64,000 nucleotides of DNA from an uncultured Candidatus Saccharibacteria bacterium. GTDB lineage: Bacteria; Patescibacteriota; Saccharimonadia; Saccharimonadales; JACDBH01. The stretch lies in NCBI GenBank assembly GCA_964490245.1, contig CAZBAF010000004.1, positions 16,072-80,071 of the forward strand. Direction: 5' to 3'. Position 1 is the stretch's first letter; the number at the start of each line of letters is the position of its first letter. The position numbers and the translations under genes are program-made. The notes under the pieces are model-generated. The model searched no databases. It was not told the origin of the DNA and saw only the letters and a list, made by a program, of their open reading frames with translations. This document shows, in pieces, positions 3,951-50,852 of this stretch.

Positions 3951-5570
3951 ATGTATTCACCTGCCCTAATTGAGAGACTAATTAAACTTTTGGCGCCGGA
4001 CGGTTATGTGCCGCGCGCTGAAAGCGAGGCCCGTTACCCTGCCCGTGATTTACCGGATGGCGCAGAGGTTATGCGTGTACCGCCCAGTCCGACCGGTTTT
4101 GTGCATATCGGGACCATTTATGCAGGCCTGGTAAACGAGCGTATTGCCCACCAGTCCGCCGGTGGCGGAGGCGGCGTGTTTATCCTGCGCATTGAAGACA
4201 CCGATAAAAAGCGCGAAATCGAAGGCTCGGTTGATGGCATTATCAACGCGTTTAAAGCGTTTGAGCTGGAGTACGACGAAGGCCCGGACCGTGACGCGTC
4301 ATACGGCCCGTATCTGCAGAGCGAACGGGCGCAGATCTATCTGGGTTATGCGATTGAGCTGCTTCAATCCGGCCGCGCCTACCCCTGTTTTGCGACACCC
4401 GAGGAGTTGCAGGCCGCCGTCAAGGACCAGCAGGCTCAAAAGCTCCGTCCCGGCTATTATGGCCAGTGGGCGCTGTGGCGTGATCGTTCCGAACAGGACG
4501 TTATAGAGGCGCTTGATGCGGGCAAGCCGTTTGTGCTGCGCTTTAAGAGTCTTGGTTCGCACGACCGGCGCATTCGCTACACCGATGTTTTTAAGGGCAA
4601 AATGGAAGTACCTGAGAACGATCTTGATGTGCCGCTGATCAAATCTGACGAAACCCGCCTGCCCACCTATCATCTGGCGCATGTGGTCGATGATCATCTG
4701 ATGCGCATCACTAAGGTCTTCCGCAGTGACGAGTGGCTGCCCTCGACCGCGCTGCATATTGAGCTTAGCCAGGCACTTGGGCACCAGCCGTTCACCTATG
4801 GTCACTTTGCACCGATCTCTGTTATTGATAAAAACGGCGGCGGCAAGCGCAAACTCAGCAAGCGCAAAGACGACGAGGCCGACGTGCAGTACTGGCTTAA
4901 GGCCGGCTATCCGATTGAGGCAGTCAAGGCATATCTGCTGGGTCTGGCCAATAGCAACTTTGAGGACTGGTACCGTGCCAATCCCGACAAGCCGGTAACA
5001 GAATTCACTGTCAGTCTAGAGAAACTGGCGGCAAGCCGCGCCCCTCTGCTTGACATGACAAAACTAGAAGATTATGCCAAAGATTATATTGCCCGCCTGC
5101 CGCAGGACGAGTTTAATCGGCAGATAAGCGACCATGCTGACGACGTGTTTCATGCGGCACTTGAGGCCGATCCTGAGTACACCGGCCGCGTGCTGTCCAT
5201 TGAGCGCGACGGCGACAAACCGCGTAAAGATCTGGCCAAATGGAGCGATGCGTACGAGCAGTACGGCTACTTTTTTGACGGGATGTATGAGGCGGACTTC
5301 AAAAACCGCATCACGGACGAGCTAAAAGATTTGTCTAAAGAAACTATTAAATCAGCCCTGGACAGGTATCTGCAGGATTATAAACAAACGGATGCGCAAG
5401 ATGTCTGGCTCAGCAAAGCCCGCGCCGGCGCTGAAGAAGTTAGCCTGCACATGCGCGATTATACCCGCATCATCCGTGTCAAGCTGACCGGCAAAACCCG
5501 CACCCCGGATCTGTACGCTATCCAACAGGTTATGGGTGACGACCGCGTCCGTGCCCGGCTAGGCTTCTAG
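3951..5570 (+). CDS. gltX: Glutamate--tRNA ligase
   Basis: 539 aa with class I signatures PSPTGFVHIG (HIGH), RIEDTD and KLSKRK (KMSKS). Confidence 0.9.
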   Translation: MYSPALIERLIKLLAPDGYVPRAESEARYPARDLPDGAEVMRVPPSPTGFVHIGTIYAGLVNERIAHQSAGGGGGVFILRIEDTDKKREIEGSVDGIINAFKAFELEYDEGPDRDASYGPYLQSERAQIYLGYAIELLQSGRAYPCFATPEELQAAVKDQQAQKLRPGYYGQWALWRDRSEQDVIEALDAGKPFVLRFKSLGSHDRRIRYTDVFKGKMEVPENDLDVPLIKSDETRLPTYHLAHVVDDHLMRITKVFRSDEWLPSTALHIELSQALGHQPFTYGHFAPISVIDKNGGGKRKLSKRKDDEADVQYWLKAGYPIEAVKAYLLGLANSNFEDWYRANPDKPVTEFTVSLEKLAASRAPLLDMTKLEDYAKDYIARLPQDEFNRQISDHADDVFHAALEADPEYTGRVLSIERDGDKPRKDLAKWSDAYEQYGYFFDGMYEADFKNRITDELKDLSKETIKSALDRYLQDYKQTDAQDVWLSKARAGAEEVSLHMRDYTRIIRVKLTGKTRTPDLYAIQQVMGDDRVRARLGF

Positions 5571-6101
5571 CAGTGTGAGCAGCTTAACTGTCGTGTTCCA
5601 GCTGCGGATGGTGACGTTTTTATAAACCGGCTGGCTGATGATTTTATTAAGCCGGCTTTTAGTCCGTTCGCTGCTAAGACGCTGAAAATATACCACCCCA
5701 TTTGCCTGCCATGCCTTGTCGACTTCAGGATTTACTTCGGTGACTTGTATGATTTCACCGCTTGATATGCCCATGGGGAACAGCACGTCGCTGTGGTATT
5801 TCTCTGGTTGGCTGCCGAATCCGGCCGGAGCGTTGTTAACGATTTGTCCAAGTTGCACCGGGTTAAGCACCAGTACTTTAATGAGTTCGCTGTCGGTTTT
5901 GAAATGCCTGGTAATAACCTCCTCCACGCGGCGCCCCACTGTATCGGCCGTCAGCGGAGATTCAAGCAAAATGTTGCCGCTGTTTATGTAGCTGGAGACG
6001 TTTTTAAAGCCGTCATCCCATAGGTGCGACTTTAAGTCGGTCATAGAAACTGTATTTTTACCCCCGACATTCACGCCGCGCAGCAGACAAAGATATCGCA
6101 T
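5559..6101 (-). CDS. DUF1697 domain protein
   Basis: 180 aa. The N-terminus MRYLCLLRGVNVGGKN...INSGN is typical of DUF1697. Confidence 0.8.
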   Translation of the reverse strand: MRYLCLLRGVNVGGKNTVSMTDLKSHLWDDGFKNVSSYINSGNILLESPLTADTVGRRVEEVITRHFKTDSELIKVLVLNPVQLGQIVNNAPAGFGSQPEKYHSDVLFPMGISSGEIIQVTEVNPEVDKAWQANGVVYFQRLSSERTKSRLNKIISQPVYKNVTIRSWNTTVKLLTLLEA

Positions 6102-6261
6102 GCAGGTATTGTAGCGTATGTGCGTAAACCTACATTCTTCTTATTCTACATTATACCATACGGCGTCAAGTATGTCAATTCTCACCCTTGTCACAAGACT
6201 AAAGTATAAATTATAGAATACAGAGTACCGTATATCGTATTACGCATATCGTAGTACGAAT

Positions 6262-6726
6262 AAGCGGCCGGAGGCCGCTATAAAACAGTGCCCGTTAGGG
6301 CTTCTGCTTTTTTTGGGCATCGGCTTTTGCCCTGAGCGGATGTGCCAAACAGACAACGGCCAAAGGCGGCCAGGTGTTAAGCAATCCCATCCCAAGTAGC
6401 AAGGGATTGTGTGTTCTGGCCGTGCCGTTGTCTGGCTTGGCAACAGGCGCATCAAGGCAAAAACGCAGCCCAAGTTTTTTGGGTTCCGTTTTTGGCGATC
6501 CAAAAATGGAACAAGTTGCTTCTTGGTTGCAAGAAGGTATGAAAAGGAGTTAGTCTTTTTTTGCATACTTTTCTGCTGAACCAGAAAAGTATGGCGGTCA
6601 AAAGCCCGATGAGGCTTTACCGAAATTGTTTTAATAGAAAAGATAGACTTAAGACCCTACAGTGGTTTATAGAAATTACTTTGAAAATCCAAGAATAAAA
6701 CAGCCTGACTCTTGGTTCTAAGAACA
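6262..6726 (+). ncRNA. Unclassified multi-copy structured element, copy A (subtype 1, with an extra hairpin insert at 6466-6555)
   Basis: Shares the ordered scaffold and central domain with copies B and C. Stems covary and loops are conserved. The internal ORF 6240..6566(-) is not frame-conserved between copies. Confidence 0.6.
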
Positions 6727-9440: not shown

Positions 9441-9824
9441 TTAGTTCTTGCGGCCAAGAGACAGGCTGTTTCATTATTGATCGTCGAAGTTATTTCGACA
9501 AACCCTGGGGACTCTTGACTTCACTTCCTTTTATTAAAACAATTTCGGTAAAACCCCATTCAGGGCTTTTGACCGACATCCTTTCTTGTACTGACAGAAA
9601 AGTAACCAAAAGAGCTCGGCCGGGAACACATCCCGTGACTGTGCTTCCAGTCGAAAAGAACAACGACGCGGCCAGAACTCAAAAATCCTTAACTACTTGG
9701 GATGGATTTTCTTAAACATACTGGCCGCCTTGGTCGTTGTTCTTTCGACGAAGCCCAATCAGGGTATGGTTCCATGCCCAGGAAAAGCTGAAACCCGCTA
9801 AAGCGGGCGCTGTTTTTTATAAAT
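9441..9824 (-). ncRNA. Unclassified multi-copy structured element, copy C (subtype 1, reverse orientation)
   Basis: The reverse complement aligns module by module with copies A and B. The central long stem is fully compensated: GTCGAAAGAACAACGAC/GTCGTTGTTCTTTTCGAC versus GCCAAACAGACAACGG/CCGTTGTCTGGTTTGGC. Confidence 0.6.
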
Positions 9825-10005: not shown

Positions 10006-10443
10006 TCAGCCGGCGTTGCGCTGCTCGTTGAGCGAGCCGATACTGGCCAGCTTGGCCTTGCTGCCGAACCGCCGCCTAACTGTGTTCGCCACCAGCACGA
10101 TCAGGAACCCGATCACGTAACTGACGTTCAGGATGATGTACAGAGCCCAGGCGGGCCGAGTTACATAGGGATTGATGCTAATAAGGTAGCAAATGAGCCC
10201 ACCGCTAATCAGGCAAACGATCAGCATTCCAATGAAGTTTTCGATGGTCTCATGTCGCTTGCCTTCGCTGATCGTTATTAGCACAATGCTGCTAGCGGCG
10301 CCGATGCCGATCAGGCTGAACCCGAACATGGCCCAGAACTGCGTTCCTGGATCGGCATCGCCGGGCAGACGGAAGCTCAGGTGCCAGCAGGCGAAGCCGC
10401 TGACGAGGAACAGGACGAGGGTTGAGGCGACGATGAGTCGCAC
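10006..10443 (-). CDS. Small multi-pass membrane protein (hypothetical)
   Basis: 145-aa ORF with four hydrophobic segments. It is flanked by copies C and B of the structured element. Confidence 0.6.
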   Translation of the reverse strand: MRLIVASTLVLFLVSGFACWHLSFRLPGDADPGTQFWAMFGFSLIGIGAASSIVLITISEGKRHETIENFIGMLIVCLISGGLICYLISINPYVTRPAWALYIILNVSYVIGFLIVLVANTVRRRFGSKAKLASIGSLNEQRNAG

Positions 10444-10582
10444 GTCACGGACGGATATGATGCTCCTTAGGGAGACTCTTGGTTGTTCCCAGGTTTGGTC
10501 AAGGGTGGAAACGTCCCTATCCTCTCATTGTAGCATACTTTAATAATATTGTCAATACCTTACCCCTGTTGATGACTAAGAA

Positions 10583-10673
10583 GTGATTAGTTATTAGTGT
10601 TTAGTGATTATAAGCCAGAAGTTAGAAGTGAGTTATTTAGTAGATGGTAGTTAGTAGATAGTAGTTGGTAAAG
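10583..10673 (+). repeat. Heptanucleotide tandem array (13 units), stop-codon rich
   Basis: GTGATTA GTTATTA GTGTTTA GTGATTA TAAGCCA GAAGTTA GAAGTGA GTTATTT AGTAGAT GGTAGTT AGTAGAT AGTAGTT GGTAAAG. The 7-nt register is strict. Confidence 0.8.
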
Positions 10674-11095
10674 GCGGCGTTAGCCGCCATTTAAAACAGC
10701 GCCCTTTAGGGCTTCTGCTGTATCTGGGCATCGGCTTTTGCCCTGAGCGGATGTGCCAAACAGACAACGGCCAAAGGCGGCCAGGTGTTAAGCAATCCCA
10801 TCCCAAGTAGCAAGGGATTGTGCGTTCTGGCCGCGCCGTTGTCTGGTTTGGCAACAGACGCATCAAGGCGAAAACGTAAGCCCGAGCTTCTTTGCATACT
10901 TTCCTCCACCCCACGAAACGGGTTTCGTGGGGGCCCCGGTTGTCGGTACAAGAAAGTATGGCGGCCGAAACCCTGAAAGGGTTTGCCGAAAATTCTTTAT
11001 TAAACAAAAAAGACGGGGTTAAGACCCCCGCAGGGCTTTACCGAAACAACTTTGAAATCCAAAAATAAAACATTCTCACTCTTAGCTGTAAAAAA
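10673..11095 (+). ncRNA. Unclassified multi-copy structured element, copy B (subtype 1)
   Basis: Full scaffold present. Near-identical to A in the central domain (10727-10890). Carries the same insert hairpin as copy F. Confidence 0.6.
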
Positions 11096-20620: not shown

Positions 20621-20656
20621 ACAAAAAGACAAAAAGGGTCCGACCCTTTACAGGGG
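20621..20656. repeat. REP-like hairpin, left flank of the RAYT gene
   Basis: AAAAAGACAAAAAGGGTC-C-GACCCTTTACAGGGG. It is the inverted copy of 21338-21372. Confidence 0.6.
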
Positions 20657-20681
20657 TAAAAAATTGCAGTAACCTGTTGTT

Positions 20682-21299
20682 ATGCCCGCAAAGAATACCG
20701 TACGCGCGTTTGAGACAGGGGGATATTATCATGTCTACAACAGGGGTGCCGGCAAGCGGATTGTGTTTCATGACGACTACGACAAGGCATATTTTTTAGG
20801 CATCATTGCGCGATACCTCGACCCAAAAGTTCATGATTATGACGGTAATGGAGCGGAATATCCCAAATACGATACAGACATAGAGCTCCTCGCTTATTGC
20901 CTAATGGGCAATCACATCCACTTATTGTTCTACATAAAGCAAAGCCCGAATGCGCTATCCATGTTAGTAAAGTCCATAATGGTCAGTTACACGATGTATT
21001 TTAACTTAAAGTACAAGGAATCCGGTACGCTTTTTCAGGGTAAATATCGTGCGTCACGAATTACTCGTGATGACTACCTTCAGCACATTAGTCGCTACAT
21101 ACACCTAAATCCAAGGAACTATGCGACCTACCAGTTTTCGAGCTTTCAGGCGTACACCGGTGGCGCAGTTCCCCGCTGGTTGAATCCTCAAAGACTCCTG
21201 GCGCTTTTTAATACAAATGAGTACAAAGCATTTGTCGCTGATTACGAGGGGCATAAAGAGGCTCTTGAGTCGATACGCTCTGAGTTAGCCGACAGATAA
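20682..21299 (+). CDS. IS200-like / REP-associated tyrosine transposase (RAYT, Y1 HUH family)
   Basis: 205 aa with YHVYNRG, the HUH motif YCLMGNHIHLL, and SRYIHLNP carrying the catalytic Tyr region. Confidence 0.8.
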   Translation: MPAKNTVRAFETGGYYHVYNRGAGKRIVFHDDYDKAYFLGIIARYLDPKVHDYDGNGAEYPKYDTDIELLAYCLMGNHIHLLFYIKQSPNALSMLVKSIMVSYTMYFNLKYKESGTLFQGKYRASRITRDDYLQHISRYIHLNPRNYATYQFSSFQAYTGGAVPRWLNPQRLLALFNTNEYKAFVADYEGHKEALESIRSELADR

Positions 21300-21337
21300 G
21301 CCCCGCTAGGTGTTAACAGATGAGTGCAGAGATATAC

Positions 21338-21372
21338 CTCTGTAAAGGGTCAGACCCTTTTGTCCTTTTTAC
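21338..21372. repeat. REP-like hairpin, right flank of the RAYT gene
   Basis: CTCTGTAAAGGGTC-A-GACCCTTTTGTCCTTTTTAC. Its reverse complement matches the left-flank repeat at about 27 of 31 positions. Confidence 0.6.
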
Positions 21373-21603
21373 TTTGAGTTGGGGTCGGGCTTTTTGAGCT
21401 GGGGGCGGAACGTTTGGTTGGGTTTGTCGCTGTGTTGGCCGGTATTTAGTGTTAGCGGCTATTTAAGGTAGCGGGCGGCGTCGCGCTCTTGGTCACGCTT
21501 CTTCAAAGCCTGACGTTTATAAAGCTTCGCGCCGTAAAATCTCTCTATTTTAAATGATCTGATTTTGTCGGGCTCGGCATATAATTCTCCTTTATCAGTC
21601 GAA

Positions 21604-25059: not shown

Positions 25060-26073
25060 TTATGACTGGGTGCCGGTTTTTGCCCGTGGCTGCTTAAACA
25101 TAAACGAACCGATAATGCCGCCGCACAACAGCCCGCCGATAATCAGCAGACTAAGATTGGTCGGAATGTGTATATTGAACCAGGCGATGCCAAAGATCTC
25201 GCGTGGTGCAATCACCAGTTTGAGCCCGACAAACAGCAGCAACAACGCCAGGGCGTAGCTTAGCATCCAGAATCGTTCTTTAATGTGGTCAAAGACAAAG
25301 TACAGCGCGCGCATGCCTAAAATAGCCGCCGCGTTGCTGGCAACGATAAGGAACGGTTCGTGCGATACGGCCAGTGCGGCCGGTACGCTGTCTACGGCAA
25401 AGATGACGTCAGTAAACTCAACAACCAGCAGTGCCATGAACAGCATGGTGGCGACCCGTTTGCCGTTTTTGCGAGTGAACAGCTTGTGCCCGTCAAAACT
25501 GTGGGTCATAGGGATAATGGCTTTCGCGACCCTGAAAAAGCGGCTGTTATGCGGGTCGTATACGTGATCTTTTTTGGTTCTAAGCAATCTTATGCCGCTC
25601 CACAGCAGGATACCGCCGAACAGGATAAGTATTGGCTCGAACCGCTTGATTAAGGCAATACCGGCAAAGACAAATATGGTACGCAGTACGATTGCGCCAA
25701 TGACACCCCAGAACAAAATACGGTGCTGGTACTTTTTGGGAATGCGAAAATACGCCAGAATAATCGACCAGGTAAAGACATTGTCGATGGACAGGGATTT
25801 TTCGACCAGGTAGGCGCTGAAGTACTGGCTGGCCGCCTCGCCGCCAAATGCGTTGAGGATGACGATACCCAGTCCGGCACCGAGCAACACCCACGCAACG
25901 CTTTGCCAAATGGCTTCACGAATCCCGACAGGCTTGTCCTTGCGGTGCAGTACCAAAATGTCGACCAGAATAAGCAGCAAGAACCAGCCGCCCAAAAGTG
26001 CCCAGTGCCACCACTGGATATGGAGATTAAGAGCCAGTGTATTAACCGCAGCTTCAGCAAACAAATGCATCAA
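25060..26073 (-). CDS. TerC family integral membrane protein
   Basis: 337 aa, multi-TM, with E.SLS.DN and FA.DS.PA motifs. Confidence 0.85.
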   Translation of the reverse strand: MMHLFAEAAVNTLALNLHIQWWHWALLGGWFLLLILVDILVLHRKDKPVGIREAIWQSVAWVLLGAGLGIVILNAFGGEAASQYFSAYLVEKSLSIDNVFTWSIILAYFRIPKKYQHRILFWGVIGAIVLRTIFVFAGIALIKRFEPILILFGGILLWSGIRLLRTKKDHVYDPHNSRFFRVAKAIIPMTHSFDGHKLFTRKNGKRVATMLFMALLVVEFTDVIFAVDSVPAALAVSHEPFLIVASNAAAILGMRALYFVFDHIKERFWMLSYALALLLLFVGLKLVIAPREIFGIAWFNIHIPTNLSLLIIGGLLCGGIIGSFMFKQPRAKTGTQS

Positions 26074-26128
26074 TAAAAAATAGTTTACGGTTTTTTATGG
26101 CAGAATGCGAGAGGGATATGGGGGAGGA

Positions 26129-26240
26129 GTGGTTAGTGGTTAGTGTCTAGTGATTAGTTATTAGTGTTTAGTGATTAGAAGCCAGAAGTGCGAAGTGAGC
26201 TAAGAGTAGATGGTAGTTAGTAGATAGTAGTTGGAATAGG
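26129..26240 (+). repeat. Heptanucleotide tandem array (16 units), stop-codon rich
   Basis: GTGGTTA x2, GTGTCTA, GTGATTA, GTTATTA, GTGTTTA, GTGATTA, GAAGCCA, GAAGTGC, GAAGTGA, GCTAAGA, GTAGATG, GTAGTTA, GTAGATA, GTAGTTG, GAATAGG. Confidence 0.8.
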
Positions 26241-26590
26241 CGACGTTAGCCGCCTATTAAAACAGCGCCCTTTAGGGCTTCGGCCTGTTCTGGCCATGCC
26301 CGCCTGCCCTGATTCGGGTGGTGTAATAAAACACAATAGAGAGCAAGGCGTCAGCCCCAATACTCAAATATGAAACTATTGGGGCCGACTGAAAGGAGTC
26401 CGCCTTACGTATTGTATTTTTGAACAACAAGCCGAGTCACGGCAGGCGGGCCGGCCGAGCTTCTTTGTATTCTTTTCTGTCGACACAGAAAAGAATGTCG
26501 GTCAAAAGCCCTGTAAGGGCTTTACCGAAATTGTTTTAATAGAAAAGATAGACTTAAGACCCCGCAGGGGTTCATCGAAATAAGTCTTAA
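26238..26590 (+). ncRNA. Unclassified multi-copy structured element, copy D (subtype 2)
   Basis: The 5' and 3' modules match subtype 1. The central domain (26292-26455) is different and is shared, with covariation, by copies E and F. Confidence 0.6.
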
Positions 26591-27156
26591 AAATCAATCC
26601 CCTTATTAGCAAGAAACTTATCATCAAAGTGGTGTTTCATTTTGGTCATGTGGGTAGCGATGTCGACAATATCCAGTAGGTCTTCCGGGAAGTTGCGGCC
26701 GGTCAGACACAGGCTGGTCTTGCCTGCCCGCTTTTCTATCAGTTCTTTAAGTTGGTCTTTGGTGAGCAGGCCGTCATTGACGGCGTTGTTGATTTCATCG
26801 CATATGACCAGATCGTAGTTTCCGCCGGCTGCTGCCTGCAGGGCGGCATTGAACGTATCGGCGGCGGCCTGTTTGTGCTCTTGTTCGGTTACGTCTTTTT
26901 CGCTCAAAGCGCCGGCGTTATAGAACCCCTTGCCGCCCTTATGAAACAGCAGCTTATCGCCGTACAGCGGCTGGATGCTTTCGATAAAATCATGCTCGCT
27001 CACCTGCCAGGATTTGACGAACTGAATAAACGCCACCTGCCAGCCGGCACCGAGTGCGCGCGCCAGCAGGCCAACAGCGGCAGACGTCTTGCCCTTGCCC
27101 TCGCCGGTGTAGACGACTACAACCGAATCTTTGGTCTGATAATCCTCAAATGCCAT
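26587..27156 (-). CDS. Cob(I)yrinic acid a,c-diamide adenosyltransferase (CobA/BtuR type)
   Basis: 189 aa with YTGEGKGKTSAA.G...RA.G.G..V...QF.K and ..CDE. Confidence 0.8.
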   Translation of the reverse strand: MAFEDYQTKDSVVVVYTGEGKGKTSAAVGLLARALGAGWQVAFIQFVKSWQVSEHDFIESIQPLYGDKLLFHKGGKGFYNAGALSEKDVTEQEHKQAAADTFNAALQAAAGGNYDLVICDEINNAVNDGLLTKDQLKELIEKRAGKTSLCLTGRNFPEDLLDIVDIATHMTKMKHHFDDKFLANKGIDF

Positions 27157-27934: not shown

Positions 27935-28140
27935 TTGTTTTGCTCCTTTTCTTTGACAGGCAGTTCAATGACGCTGAATTTCTGTAAGACAAAAATCGCG
28001 GAGCCCATCAGCCCGGCAACCAGCGCGGTGACCAGGATGGTAATAAGAATTATCTCCGGCAACGAGTGGGTAACGGCCTCGGCGACGGTTTGGTGATGTA
28101 CTCCGTTATGGGCGAATGTATCCATATCTTTATTATACAC
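27931..28140 (-). CDS. Small membrane protein (hypothetical)
   Basis: 69 aa with one TM helix. A 4-nt overlap joins it to the downstream redoxin gene. Confidence 0.45.
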   Translation of the reverse strand: MYNKDMDTFAHNGVHHQTVAEAVTHSLPEIILITILVTALVAGLMGSAIFVLQKFSVIELPVKEKEQNK

Positions 28141-28181
28141 CTGATTACTTTTTATATAAGCCTGCTTGCTATAATAACGGT

Positions 28182-28802
28182 ATGAACAAATACAAGACGG
28201 TTGCGTTGCTGGTTGGTATAGGGTTTTTGGGCGGAGTGCTGTGGCTGGCGGCCATGCGGTTCTTTCTTGTTGCCACTCCCGAGACGCACTATCATGCCAA
28301 TTTTGCCGTCTATATCAACGGGCAGCGTGAGGCGTTTGAAGAGTTTACTTACTATGAAGAAGTTGCCGCCTGCACCAGCGGCTATGCTGATAACCCTAAG
28401 GGGCGCGTACACATGCACGATCAGGTCAATGATGTTATCCATGTGCATGACAAGCGGGTGACGTATGGCAACTTTTTTCAGAATATCGGCTGGAATGTCG
28501 GGCCCGGCTATATTGCTACCCTGGACCGGGTCTATGTAGCTGACGAAGATAACACAGTGGTGTACATGCTTAACGGCGAGAAAGTTCGCGATATCAGCGG
28601 CCGTGTGATCGGCAATCTGGACCGGCTACTGGTGGCCTATGGCGATGCCTCTGATGAGGAGCTGCAGCGATGGTACGATGACGTGCCAGCCACCGCGGAA
28701 GAGGTCAACAAGTATCAGGATCCTGCCAGCTGCAGCGGCATAGGCGGTGCGGGTTATGACTCTTTGGGTAATCGCATCAAGCGCGCCACTTTTTGGCCGT
28801 GA
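28182..28802 (+). CDS. Membrane-anchored His-rich hypothetical protein
   Basis: The ORF runs from 28116, but MNKYKTVALLVGIGFLGG... at 28182 gives a signal-anchor. A TATAAT box at 28170-28175 lies 6 nt upstream, which suggests a leaderless mRNA. Confidence 0.6.
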   Translation: MNKYKTVALLVGIGFLGGVLWLAAMRFFLVATPETHYHANFAVYINGQREAFEEFTYYEEVAACTSGYADNPKGRVHMHDQVNDVIHVHDKRVTYGNFFQNIGWNVGPGYIATLDRVYVADEDNTVVYMLNGEKVRDISGRVIGNLDRLLVAYGDASDEELQRWYDDVPATAEEVNKYQDPASCSGIGGAGYDSLGNRIKRATFWP

Positions 28803-28806
28803 GCCT

Positions 28807-29290
28807 GAGTTATTGGTAGATAGTAGTTAGTAGTTGGTATATGGAATAGGCGACAAAGCCGCCATTAAAAAACGCCCGCTTTAGCGGGCTTCTGCTGTGT
28901 ATGGCAATGCCCACCTGCCCTGATTCGGCTGTTCGTCAAAAATACAATAGAGAGCGAGGACTCAGTCCAAAACTTCTACCTAAAATCAGTATGAAGTTTT
29001 GGACCGACTGGAAGGAGTCGTCCGAGCGTATTGTATTTTTGAACAACAAGCCGAGTCACGGCAGGCGGGCCGGCCGAGTTCTTTTGCATTCTTTTCTGTC
29101 GACACAGAAAAGAATGTCGGATAAAAGTCCGACAGGACTTAGCCGAAATGTCTTGTTGGCGCAAGAAAGAAAGGGTCGGTTCTTGGCTACAAGAACAAAA
29201 AGGCCCTTGAAAGGGCTGGTCGAAACTATTTAAATAAAAAGATGGTATAAAACCTGCATAACTAAGCCAAAACAAGACTTAAAATAAAAA
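28807..29290 (+). ncRNA. Unclassified multi-copy structured element, copy E (subtype 2, short heptamer leader, duplicated 3' module)
   Basis: Aligns with D and F. Two consecutive copies of the hairpin + CGAAA + AT-rich module sit at 29120-29155 and 29199-29255. Confidence 0.55.
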
Positions 29291-29436: not shown

Positions 29437-29781
29437 ATGGGCAAAATTTTTAAGCGCGCCAAGCGGACAAAGGCTGCCAATGATCCGATTATGGATCATT
29501 TAGCCGTGGTCAACGCCCGTACACTGCTGATCAGCAACCTTATTGGCATGGGCTGGCGGTTGGCGCTGGTGGTGCTGGTACCGATTTTTGCCGGCGTACA
29601 GCTGGATAAGCGGTTTGATTCTGCTCCATCCCTGACATTGGCAGCTTTTTTTATTGCTATTTTTGCGGCGAGTATGCTGATATATAAGACGTATGTTGAG
29701 ATGAGCGCCCAGGCCGCTTCAGAAGAAGCCAAGAAAGCCAAGCGCCGGGCGAATAAAGTAAAGAGGGAGACAGATGTTTAA
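29437..29781 (+). CDS. AtpZ/AtpI-like ATP synthase accessory membrane protein
   Basis: 114 aa with two TM helices. It is the first gene of the atp operon and overlaps atpB. Confidence 0.6.
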   Translation: MGKIFKRAKRTKAANDPIMDHLAVVNARTLLISNLIGMGWRLALVVLVPIFAGVQLDKRFDSAPSLTLAAFFIAIFAASMLIYKTYVEMSAQAASEEAKKAKRRANKVKRETDV

Positions 29782-30751: not shown

Positions 30752-30958
30752 ATGGATACAGAAGTACTCGCAAAAGGTATTATGATGAGCTTTGGTATGC
30801 TGGGCCCGGCTATAGGTATCGGTATGATCGGTGCGTCGTTTATGAACGCTGTCGGCCGCAATCCGGAAGCCGCCAAATACTTTGGTCAGATTTTTGTGGT
30901 CATTGCAATTGTTGAGCTTATGGCTCTGCTGGTATTTGCTTCATTATTCATTATTTAA
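30752..30958 (+). CDS. atpE: F0F1 ATP synthase subunit c
   Basis: 68-aa hairpin proteolipid with GIGMIG...RNPE...VIAIVELMAL. Confidence 0.9.
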   Translation: MDTEVLAKGIMMSFGMLGPAIGIGMIGASFMNAVGRNPEAAKYFGQIFVVIAIVELMALLVFASLFII

Positions 30959-32041: not shown

Positions 32042-32046
32042 ATTAT

Positions 32047-32136
32047 GAAATATGAAATAAGAAATAAGAAAAATGGGAAAGACATTGGGCTACTGACTGC
32101 AGCTACCCATATTTCCTATTCCCTATTGCATATTTC
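32047..32136. repeat. Heptamer-based imperfect inverted repeat (empty IVS-like hairpin) between atpH and atpA
   Basis: The arms GAAATATGAAATAAGAAATAAGAAAAATGGG and CCCATATTTCCTATTCCCTATTGCATATTTC are complementary at 26 of 31 positions, with a 28-nt loop. Confidence 0.7.
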
Positions 32137-33717: not shown

Positions 33718-33794
33718 ATGAAATATGAAATAGGAAAAATGAAAAACGGGATCGCGATAAAAGCCCATATTCCATATTTCATATTTCATATTCC
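33718..33794. repeat. Heptamer-based imperfect inverted repeat (empty IVS-like hairpin) between atpA and atpG
   Basis: The arms ATGAAATATGAAATAGGAAAAATGAAAAACGGG and CCCATATTCCATATTTCATATTTCATATTCC are complementary at about 24 of 31 positions. Confidence 0.65.
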
Positions 33795-36489: not shown

Positions 36490-36522
36490 CTCCTAAGACT
36501 GGAGTGAGGAGTGCGGAGAGCT

Positions 36523-36972
36523 GAAATATGAAAAATGAAATAAGGAATATGGGGGATGGGGCCAAAGCCCTCAAGTCGTTCCAGCAGCTGGATGCATGGC
36601 AGGCCAGTCGTAAACTTTTCTTTATTGTTTTTCATATTACAAAAAAATTTCCCAGCGAAGAGCTGTTCGTTTCAGTGTCGCAAATGCGTCGAGCGGCACT
36701 GTCAGTGGCCTCAAACATTGCCGAAGGATTTGGCAGATCTTCCGCCGCTGATAAATTGCATTTTTATGTTATGGCAAGGGGCTCTCTGACAGAACTGCAG
36801 AACCAGATCATATTAACCAAAGACGTCGATCTCATTCGCGAGGCGGATGCGACAGTCGTCCAGTCGCAAGCTGAACTTGCCCATAAGCTTGTTGTTGGAC
36901 TTATTAAAGCTACGGAGAAGAGAAAATAATGCAGCTAATCCCCTATTTCATATTTCATATTTCATACTCCCC
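36523..36972 (+). mobile_element. IVS-like cassette: heptamer inverted repeats enclosing a four-helix-bundle ORF
   Basis: The left arm GAAATATGAAAAATGAAATAAGGAATATGGGGG pairs with the right arm CCCCTATTTCATATTTCATATTTCATACTCCCC over about 28 bp with one bulge. The architecture matches 23S rRNA intervening sequences that carry this ORF family. Confidence 0.45.
36528..36929 (+). CDS. Four-helix-bundle protein (TIGR02436 / 23S rRNA-intervening-sequence protein family, Avd-like)
   Basis: 133 aa (or 126 aa from Met8 at 36549) with F..L.AWQ......FP..E......Q.RRAA.SV.SNIAEG.GR......F...ARGSL.EL. Confidence 0.8.
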   Translation: MKNEIRNMGDGAKALKSFQQLDAWQASRKLFFIVFHITKKFPSEELFVSVSQMRRAALSVASNIAEGFGRSSAADKLHFYVMARGSLTELQNQIILTKDVDLIREADATVVQSQAELAHKLVVGLIKATEKRK

Positions 36973-50179: not shown

Positions 50180-50333
50180 GTATGTATTGATAGTTACTGT
50201 TTAGTTTATGCTTACGGTTATTGTATCAGGAAGGAGCGATTGCATAAACTATTCAGCGCAAGTATCCGGTCTTTCTTTTGGTGCTAAGCGGCAGCATGTT
50301 TTCTTTTTAGCCGGCATGCCCATGGATGGAAAA

Positions 50334-50438
50334 GTGATTAGTGATTAGTGTTTAGTGGTCAGTGATTAGTGACCAGTGACTAGAAGTGAGGAGAGAGTTA
50401 TTTAGTAGATGGTAGTTAGTAGATAGTAGTTAGTAAAG
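50334..50438 (+). repeat. Heptanucleotide tandem array (15 units), stop-codon rich
   Basis: GTGATTA x2, GTGTTTA, GTGGTCA, GTGATTA, GTGACCA, GTGACTA, GAAGTGA, GGAGAGA, GTTATTT, AGTAGAT, GGTAGTT, AGTAGAT, AGTAGTT, AGTAAAG. Confidence 0.8.
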
Positions 50439-50852
50439 GCGGCGTTAGCCGCCTATTAAAACAGTGCCCGTTAGGGCTTCTGCTTTGTTGGCCATGCACG
50501 CCTGCCCTGATTCAGGCGTTGTTCAAAAGTACAATATCTGCAAACGTGTTAGCCTGCCAACTCTATTATGAAACTTGGCAGGCCGACTGAGCCGGGGCCC
50601 CCGCAGAACCTGTTCTGTGGGGTAAGGCCGAAAGGAGTCCACGTTTGCATTGTACCTTTTGACAACTGGCTGAGTCACGGCAGGTTTTCCGCCCGAGCTT
50701 CTTTGCATCCTTTTCTCCACCCCACGAAACAGGTTTCGTGGGGACCCCGGTTGTCGATACAAGAAAGGATGTCGGTCAAAAGCCCTATAGGGGCTTTACC
50801 GAAAATGTTTTTAAAAAAAAGATGGGGTTAAGACCCCGCAGGGGGTCTATAG
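50438..50852 (+). ncRNA. Unclassified multi-copy structured element, copy F (subtype 2 with two insert hairpins)
   Basis: Aligns with D and E. The central stems are compensated (GCAAACGTG/CACGTTTGC versus AAGGCG/CGCCTT). It shares an insert hairpin with copy B. Confidence 0.6.

Follow-up and report, generated by a model that had tools for sequence, protein, structure and literature searches.

Tandem heptanucleotide arrays as an accessory module of a mosaic, hairpin-rich intergenic element in a Candidatus Saccharibacteria genome

Heptanucleotides are, as far as summarised in PMC4679880 from Mrazek et al. (2007), the most abundant of the longer simple repeats in many prokaryotic genomes, and are ascribed to polymerase slippage. 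Repeats of the unit TAACTGA lie directly upstream of start codons in marine Beggiatoaceae, Cyanobacteria and Bacteroidetes (MacGregor 2015, PMC4679880), heptamer repeats of Nostoc influence the expression of recF and recO (10.1101/2022.06.06.494920), and the cholera toxin (ctxAB) promoter is reported to carry TTTTGAT heptads whose number sets its level. Two protein-based systems also read regularly spaced motifs. The Omega protein of the inc18 plasmid pSM19035 binds as one dimer per 5'-WATCACW-3' heptad, at sites of 7-10 ungapped heptads in direct or inverted orientation that overlap promoters, with at least 4 contiguous heptads required for full activity (PMC9499535). HutP of the Bacillus hut system recognises two XAG-rich sites, each with three motifs and 4-nt spacers, which are separated by a linker of 12-17 nt and flank a terminator stem (PMC2425495). 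Here we describe tandem heptamer arrays in a stretch of 64,000 nt, hereafter the window, from the genome of an uncultured Candidatus Saccharibacteria bacterium (contig CAZBAF010000004.1, positions 16,072 to 80,071), where they form the 5' module of a hairpin-rich repeat of 450-520 nt present in six copies, designated A to F.

A TRAP binding site is composed of 9-11 (G/U)AG triplets placed 2-3 nt apart, and the name STRR (short tandemly repeated repetitive sequences) is used for cyanobacterial repeats with specific units. Intergenic repeats of a mosaic, modular and hairpin-rich build, with variable module content, are represented by the clusters of bacterial interspersed mosaic elements and repetitive extragenic palindromes (BIME/REP) that accompany REP-associated tyrosine transposases (RAYT), and by the pneumococcal BOX elements. 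The arrays of the window resemble the long simple sequence repeats (LSSR; Mrazek et al. 2007) and the STRR in their tandem 7-nt units, intergenic position, occurrence at several loci, unit number differing between paralogous copies, dominance of period 7 and proposed origin by slippage; they differ in that the host belongs to the candidate phyla radiation (CPR), three unit types follow each other in fixed order, the array is a module of a larger element, and the units are degenerate around a core of 3-4 nt. With a Saccharibacterium as host and with other units they are not STRR proper, and are a further case of heptanucleotide simple repeats of the general LSSR class, seen here in a CPR bacterium. 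An earlier note on this DNA had offered three options, a ribosome-excluding insulator, a protein-binding platform and STRR-like heptamer repeats, of which the last is the best fit. As to how the tracts arose, we see about an even chance that they arose by slippage as heptanucleotide simple repeats and were taken up, as a spacer, by a mobile terminator-promoter element of mosaic build.

Anatomy of the arrays and of the element that carries them

Tandem Repeats Finder (TRF) detected period-7 arrays at all four places for which they had been reported, with calls at 50333-50383 and 50402-50435 in copy F, 26128-26178 and 26205-26232 in D, 10582-10610 and 10620-10670 in B, and 28816-28839 in E. A lag-autocorrelation scan of the whole window for periods 3-21 returned seven regions with period 7 and none in shuffled sequence, which confirms the arrays; apart from the multiples 14 and 21, only period 11 was seen besides, in one region. 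Tandem periodicity in the window is essentially confined to period 7.

Unit counts were obtained by tiling backwards from hairpin H1 (Table 1). This tiling reproduced the fixed order of three unit types described earlier: a block 1 of (AGTGNTT)n, confined to B, D and F, is followed by a purine-rich linker of three to four AGAAGNN-like units and then by block 2, which consists of AGTAGAT GGTAGTT AGTAGAT AGTAGTT and one degenerate unit. The counts of 15 units in F, 13 in B and 6 in E were borne out, and the perfect 7-nt register that had been claimed holds for B and F; in D one base is missing from the linker, so that this array measures 111 rather than 112 nt and falls one base short of 16 units. 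Copy A carries five variant units in the block 2 position (CGTATAT CGTATTA CGCATAT CGTAGTA CGAATAA), which raises the number of array-bearing copies to five of the six (A, B, D, E and F), where four had been counted. All arrays are intergenic. The arrays hold 2-5% C on the + strand and are degenerate (about 81% matches) rather than perfect microsatellites. Array E starts 4 nt past the stop codon of ORF 28116-28802, and array D lies 54 nt from the start codon (26073) of the minus-strand TerC gene.

The differences in unit number are differences between paralogous copies of one genome, six in all. An identical unit order is common to B, D and F, and the last four block-1 units of D are the four of B; D equals B with one extra 21-nt triplet of units, and TRF reports the periods 14 and 21 as well. 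Because B, D and F share their unit order and D repeats the block 1 of B, the array was probably copied along with the element once it had formed.

The arrays had also been noted for stop codons in all three frames. These are indeed dense, the + strand of F containing 7, 7 and 6 per frame, or 20 in 105 nt versus 3.9 ± 2.0 in random 105-nt segments, and the minus strand of the arrays is likewise closed in all frames. A ribosome-excluding design does not follow from this, because any 7-nt unit with TAG or TGA visits each frame within 21 nt; the density is the arithmetic of period 7.

The copies of the element are chains of hairpins: H1, H2, a long irregular stem, H5, H6 and H7. The apical domain of the long stem comes in two types, one in A, B and C and the other in D, E and F, and H5 of B and F has an extra hairpin inserted; the copies are mosaics of modules. 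The H5-H6 module has 93.7% paired cells and seven pairs with compensatory change, which none of 500 shuffles reached; slid controls gave 35-54% paired. A second, weaker H5-H6 copy (27 bits with covariance model R1) is located directly upstream of the main one in element A (6475-6544), an internal module duplication. The hairpin CCCCACGAAAC(A/G)GGTTTCGTGGGG occurs inside the H5 loop of B (~10905-10935) and of F (50719-50756), solo in locus L003 of a relative (6159-6196), directly downstream of the FAD-oxidase gene, and at another position in the L062 element described below (~95-125); it looks like a separately mobile or recombining module. A search of the whole window against Rfam 15 in gathering mode returned two tRNAs only, and the F region in E-value mode gave nothing better than E 4. 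As for features of miniature inverted-repeat transposable elements, no inverted counterpart of the array end was found in the window, and inspection of the borders by eye showed no duplication.

The elements are lineage-specific insertions. At the site of F the spacer measures 791 nt here versus 111-126 nt in the relatives' loci L005 and L006; at the site of D, between cobA and TerC, 513 nt versus 17 nt in L060 and 48 nt in L063; and at the site of E, before the atp operon, 634 nt versus 57 nt in L060. The gene content of the window fits Saccharibacteria (sortase, TerC, atp operon, quinol oxidase), and the neighbouring FAD-linked oxidase is 79-83% identical to proteins from metagenome-assembled genomes of Candidatus Saccharibacteria. 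The protein identities to the nearest relatives (FAD oxidase 83%, TerC 79%, Y1 transposase 73%) are such that none counts as a close strain.

Homologous elements surfaced, in four related genomes, only once TerC neighbourhoods of relatives had been retrieved, and each of them lacks an array: L059 (nhmmer E 1.5e-15; 81 bits with covariance model R1), L062 (70 bits; its contig ends within the element), L012 (35 bits) and L064 (23 bits and a recognisable H2), the last at the same site and in the same orientation as D. Period-7 arrays were absent throughout the TerC-neighbourhood loci L059-L065 of the closest relatives and L012 (~88 kb together). In an alignment of the 5' regions (A5), L064 fuses its upstream promoter module straight to H1/H2, and it is at this junction that the array sits in A, B, D and F. 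Since the array-less L064 joins these two modules directly, we regard the array as an accessory module of the element, a lineage-specific expansion in its spacer, and not as its core. In L059 a lone AGTAGTT lies immediately upstream of the H2 A-tract (~985-1010; GGTGAAAGTAGTTATAAACAGC); weak as a 7-mer match is, block 2 could have grown out of this unit.

Further copies were sought with two exact or gapped DNA patterns in genome and metagenome contig collections (0 matches), with one element DNA pattern in viral contigs (0 matches), and with a chimeric six-frame pseudo-protein of the six elements among 5.8 billion proteins (0 matches). When the elements were compared by blastn and nhmmer with 58 loci of relatives, the only match was the Logan contig of the same genome.

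Table 1. Positions of the elements, arrays, hairpins and promoters (window coordinates, except for L064, which has its own).
Feature	Position	Strand	Description
Element A	6130-6713	+	includes outward promoter module and duplicated H5-H6 module
Element B	10527-11083	+	includes outward promoter module
Element C	9526-9817	-	sole minus-strand copy; without array and without H1
Element D	26128-26581	+	between cobA-like gene (26587-27156, -) and TerC (25060-26073, -)
Element E	28806-29260	+	between ORF 28116-28802 and atp operon (atpI-like gene at 29437)
Element F	50333-50852	+	between divergent genes
H1 and H2 of F	50438-50486	+	H1 GGCGGC-GTTA-GCCGCC; H2 AAAACAG-GCCC-loop-GGGC-TTCTGCTTT
Array A	6229-6263	+	5 variant heptamers (CGTAKWW) in block 2 position
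Array B	10582-10672	+	13 heptamers, gapless 7-nt tiling
Array B, parts	10582-10609; 10610-10637; 10638-10672	+	block 1 (4 units); linker; block 2
Array D	26128-26238	+	111 nt, ~16 units, one base short
Array D, parts	26128-26176; 26204-26238	+	block 1 (7 units); block 2; linker between them of 27 nt (not 28)
Array E	28807-28848	+	6 heptamers: last linker unit and block 2
Array F	50333-50437	+	15 heptamers, gapless 7-nt tiling
Array F, parts	50333-50381; 50382-50402; 50403-50437	+	block 1 (AGTGNTT, 7 units); linker; block 2 (5 units)
Promoter at A	6150-6178	-	TTGACA-17-TGnTATAAT, sigma-70-type, 12/12; points outward to gene 5559-6101
Promoter at B	10527-10555	-	TTGACA-17-TGnTACAAT, 11/12; points outward to ORF 10006-10443
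Promoter at L064	9234-9262	+ (L064)	consensus 12/12; faces outward from the homologue's array end
TGAAATA/TATTTCA arrays	32044-32135; 33718-33794; 36522-36551 with 36944-36966	inverted pairs	hairpin folds, z -2.95 and -4.0

Predicted terminators and promoters, and the probable functional strand

Hairpin H2, bordered 5' by a conserved AAAACAG and 3' by TTCTGCTTT, reads as A-tract, hairpin and T-tract and resembles a bidirectional intrinsic terminator; a scan for terminator-like hairpins picked it up in E (minus strand) and in L064 (both strands), and H7 in B and F (minus strand). Outward promoters, perfect or near-perfect examples of the extended sigma-70 type (TTGACA-17-TGnTATAAT), were seen in three copies only, A, B and L064. 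The -35 box of the promoter lies 27 nt beyond the array in B and 50 nt beyond it in A, the arrays starting upstream of it. Although copies A and L064 occupy different loci, they share homology over about 50 nt around the promoter, which suggests that promoter and element move together. The minus-strand order in A, B and L064 is terminator hairpins, array (absent in L064), consensus promoter and gene; in this reading the element and the gene upstream of it run in one direction in A, B, C, D, L012 and L064. By its predicted signals the element thus looks like an inserted terminator-promoter cassette. Copy C, with neither array nor promoter, is placed between convergent genes, a site where no restart of transcription is needed. 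On the + strand, scans of the regions upstream of the arrays gave no promoter, except for a weak 9/12 site in A.

This arrangement invites the reading that the arrays serve as an AT-rich upstream promoter element or as an unstructured leader (ribosome standby) that tunes the neighbouring minus-strand gene, the number of units setting the level. The distances of arrays A and B from their promoters and of array D from the TerC start codon agree with it, and for B, D and F the next gene is read in the AAYCACU sense. In viral contigs, which are treated below, arrays in the AAUCACU sense are found 1-52 nt upstream of gene starts 26 times versus 11 for the AGUGAUU strand, and the TAACTGA, Nostoc recF/recO and ctxAB TTTTGAT heptads provide precedents. 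The distance to the next gene is inconsistent, however, ranging from 54 to 153 nt; in B the promoter stands between array and gene, so that the array is outside that leader; E is without a downstream gene on that strand; and the degeneracy of the units argues against rapid phase variation. We consider a tuning role of this kind rather improbable. A likeness to the TAACTGA repeats lies in the viral relatives of the arrays, which also sit just upstream of start codons; the window arrays have another unit, keep the distances just given and are tied to a structured element.

The two strands of the arrays differ strongly in predicted RNA structure. Folded in context, the + strand RNA had a probability of being unpaired, P(unpaired), of 0.36-0.44, versus 0.38-0.39 for random genomic inserts, whereas the minus-strand RNA of arrays B, D, E and F reached 0.68-0.83 versus 0.41-0.47 ± 0.06-0.07 for random inserts, exceeding all 25 controls. 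The + strand arrays are not open because G-U and A-U pairs let blocks 1 and 2 pair with each other. The strands also differ in composition: when all 78-nt windows were ranked by G minus C, D came 1st, F 5th and B 8th, and the minus-strand reading, (AAYCACU)n...(AACUACY)n, is G-poor, with 24-30 C versus 2-4 G per 78 nt. The minus-strand unpairedness, the T-runs of the terminators and the outward promoters agree with each other, and the strand that had been proposed as sense is therefore probably not the functional one; on these folding models it would be the minus strand that functions, if either does. A strand test based on G-U pairs versus C-A mismatches was indecisive: whole-element folds of A, C, E and F favour the sense strand but those of B and D the antisense strand, and the H5-H6 model has 4 G-U pairs and 3 C-A mismatches.

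The proposal of an unstructured platform on the + strand was rejected, its P(unpaired) being that of random inserts, and this bears on the HutP- or TRAP-like oligomeric RNA-binding platform that had been suggested for the UAG/GAG triplets of this strand and that would control H1/H2. Likeness to HutP exists in the UAG motifs with their 4-nt spacers, which equal the HutP spacing, and in the layout of two UAG-rich blocks with a linker between them and GC-rich terminator-like hairpins next to them; array F has 13 UAG in 105 nt, and the loops of H1 and H2 contain UAG as well. The linker, at 21-28 nt, is longer than the 12-17 nt of HutP sites, the blocks have 4-7 units instead of three motifs, and both lie 5' of the hairpins rather than flanking a stem. 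Triplets every 7 nt, with 4-nt spacers, do not fit the TRAP spacing, neither family was found among the ~65 ORFs of the window, array A has a single UAG, and the homologous elements have no array at all. The lack of + strand promoter-like sites, the ordinary pairing of the + strand RNA and the prevalence of AAUCACU on the mRNA-sense strand near viral gene starts add to these points. With the match reduced to UAG spacing, the TRAP/HutP-like platform is unsupported, and we hold it to be very improbable.

Attention to the minus strand raises a further possibility, that of a Rho-loading pad resembling a rut (Rho utilization) site on transcripts that run past the terminator hairpins, as a back-up against read-through. 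The C-to-G imbalance of this strand is among the most skewed of the 64 kb, the arrays offer 90-110 nt of strongly unpaired RNA, and B, D and F are C-rich, G-poor and unstructured, as expected of rut sites (stretches of about 70-80 nt or more), on the minus strand only. They also follow terminator-like hairpins, and in this orientation A, B, C and D run the same way as the upstream gene. Against such a pad, E, L059 and L062 are turned the other way, the minus strand of array A is not rich in C, the literature searched yielded nothing on the presence of Rho in Saccharibacteria, and the viral arrays lie 1-52 nt upstream of start codons, where a pad would be polar. The chance that the arrays load Rho seems slim.

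Heptamer tandems outside the element

The link between array and element that the earlier note had drawn stands within this genome, where arrays are found in five of the six copies and B, D and F agree in unit order. It is not essential, the homologous elements having no array, and it is not exclusive: heptamer arrays were also found at positions unrelated to the element, the outcome that the note had named as refuting the link. In the window itself, TRF arrays with other units lie at 30940, 32044, 33718, 33765, 36522 and 36944, and a second heptamer family, (TGAAATA)n and (TATTTCA)n, forms inverted pairs in the atp operon (Table 1). The third of these pairs brackets a gene of the PF05635 family ('23S rRNA intervening sequence protein', 36528-36929) that is inserted between atpD and atpC, and the other two look like empty versions of the stem around that gene. 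Inverted pairs of the TGAAATA type were absent from the syntenic relatives. In other loci of Saccharibacteria and CPR bacteria period 7 is the commonest tandem period, at ~1/15 of the density in the window.

Heptamer tandems of whatever sequence are frequent in viral contigs. A search with 2.5 units of AGTGATT yielded 43 stretches (GC 38-65%), and AGTAGWT-type tandems yielded 51; the scrambled controls ATGGTTA and AGGTTAT, also at 2.5 units, gave at least 80 and 25 stretches, respectively. Since scrambled heptamers of the same composition are equally common there, the units of the window are not special, and the idea of AGTGATT as a special recurrent heptamer was rejected, two scrambled tandems being as common or commoner. 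The H5-H6 module of the element was detected at none of the 43 viral AGTGATT loci. The viral arrays are intergenic, with 66 of 68 outside called ORFs, and of 92 pattern matches 38 belong to hairpin-forming inverted pairs and 54 are solo. The genes beside them are phage structural genes (portal, prohead-protease, tail) and not partition genes. One phage contig (L100, 3038-3138 and 3946-4187; L104, IMGVR_UViG_3300006226_000108) has 14 matches to the AGTGATT probe and contains several inverted pairs of the form (AGTGRTT)n-loop-(AAYCACT)n followed by a T-run, that is, long hairpin terminators, one arm of which has ~25 units.

These comparisons matter for a rival reading in which a ribbon-helix-helix (RHH) protein of the Omega (ParB-pSM19035) type would bind contiguous DNA heptads cooperatively, one dimer per 7 bp, and repress the outward promoter or mark a partition site. 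Among known systems, Omega alone accounts for a 7-bp period without gaps. AATCACT, to which AGTGATT is reverse-complementary, is an exact Omega heptad, the invariant AGTG core corresponds to the CACT of the heptad, the arrays have 4-7 contiguous units, and array B starts 27 nt upstream of the -35 of a consensus promoter. Most units, on the other hand, deviate in the ATC part: 7 of 18 match WATCACW exactly, only CACW is conserved and the 'AT' varies. Block 2, with its other unit, and array A are outside the consensus, and the arrays are chromosomal and multi-copy. No RHH, Omega_Repress or ParA family was found in the ~65 ORFs of the window, 10 small ones included. The neighbours of the viral arrays are the structural genes just named, and given that scrambled tandems are equally common and that the match came from a text search for a 7-mer, a chance resemblance is likely. 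The Omega-type heptad operator is a minor rival, and an unlikely one.

A candidate for the enzyme behind the spread of the elements was considered in ORF 20682-21299, which lies in the inverted-repeat-flanked region 20632-21361 and encodes an IS200-like Y1 transposase (PF01797, 37 bits; 40 bits, below cutoff, with the NCBIfam model of REP-associated tyrosine transposases). It is flanked by 27-nt inverted repeats, each with the palindrome AAAGGGTCNGACCCTTT, and an orthologue of 73% identity occupies the same site in L066-L069. With this RAYT-like gene, its inverted hairpin flanks and the mosaic of hairpin-rich modules, the locus shows a likeness to BIME/REP and BOX repeats; it differs from them in that the elements contain none of the hairpins found beside the RAYT-like gene, the elements are far longer (450-520 nt), and two of the six copies (A and B) adjoin a promoter. 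As mobiliser of the elements the transposase is unsupported, since its 27-nt flanks match none of the six, and the link is further weakened by a relative with the orthologous gene that shows no elements in the 20 kb examined. Downstream of the Y1 gene, a very G-rich segment at 21381-21465 (35 G and 10 C in 78 nt) contains two 17-nt tandem units, GTGTTAGCCGCTATTTA-like, which loosely resemble the 3' half of H1 and its spacer (GCGTTAGCCGCCTATTA) and gave no match at 3 mismatches.

On the scale of the whole window the cumulative GC skew climbs steadily to ~60 kb and then drops, a pattern suggestive of an origin or terminus of replication at about 60-62 kb. The G-rich strand holds five of the six elements and all of the arrays.

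Origin and possible role of the arrays

Under the reading that we put forward, the tracts would have grown by slipped-strand duplication of blocks of 7, 14 and 21 nt, as the 14- and 21-nt periods and the extra triplet of D suggest. The site of growth would be the spacer between two conserved modules of the lineage-specific, hairpin-rich mosaic element, and the grown array would then have been copied together with the element. The element itself would be an inserted cassette in which H2 ends transcription and, in some copies, an outward minus-strand promoter restarts it. If the array has a role at all, it would most likely act on the minus strand as a length-variable, non-coding and non-pairing spacer, or insulator, between the terminator hairpins and the promoter or leader of the next gene.

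Several observations weigh against this account, for which the material consists of six copies from one genome, compared by sequence. Across 14 non-redundant block-1 units AGT is invariant, and all 12 differences from AGTGATT are at positions 4-7; a clustering of this kind has a probability of (4/7)^12, or ~0.001, a value that is post hoc and concerns units that share ancestry. It hints at a constraint on a core of 3-4 nt, which pure slippage would not predict. The number of units varies, as had been claimed, in block 1 and in the linker, but block 2 has five units in all five copies that carry it, and A shows concerted changes, with R replaced by C at position 1. Elements E, L059 and L062 are oppositely oriented relative to their neighbours, and an outward promoter is present only beside A and B, not beside D, E and F.

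The AGT invariance, the fixed unit count of block 2 and the concerted changes in A leave a protein-binding reading some probability. In its broadest form the array would be a strand-specific docking tract in a mobile cassette that rewires operon boundaries in a CPR genome, either as a gapless heptad operator for an Omega-type RHH protein, in chromosomal use at many sites, or as a minus-strand RNA pad, free of G and of structure, for Rho, S1 or a cold-shock-type protein. We give this a small chance; if it is true, how strongly adjacent genes are insulated from each other would depend on the number of units.

Of the two, the host element is a more interesting object than the arrays. The genomes of CPR bacteria, Saccharibacteria among them, are small and compact, with non-coding DNA that is little known, and in this group one lineage has gained hairpin-rich elements of ~0.5 kb at six sites within 64 kb, where its relatives have spacers of 17-126 nt. 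Since such elements carry terminator-like hairpins, to which some copies add a perfect outward promoter, they may be able to cut and restart transcription between genes. If the heptamer spacer is bound by a protein, it would provide a simple, testable handle on regulation in a group that is hard to culture; if it is not, it would be a further example of the widespread and still puzzling surplus of tandem heptamers among prokaryotes and phages.

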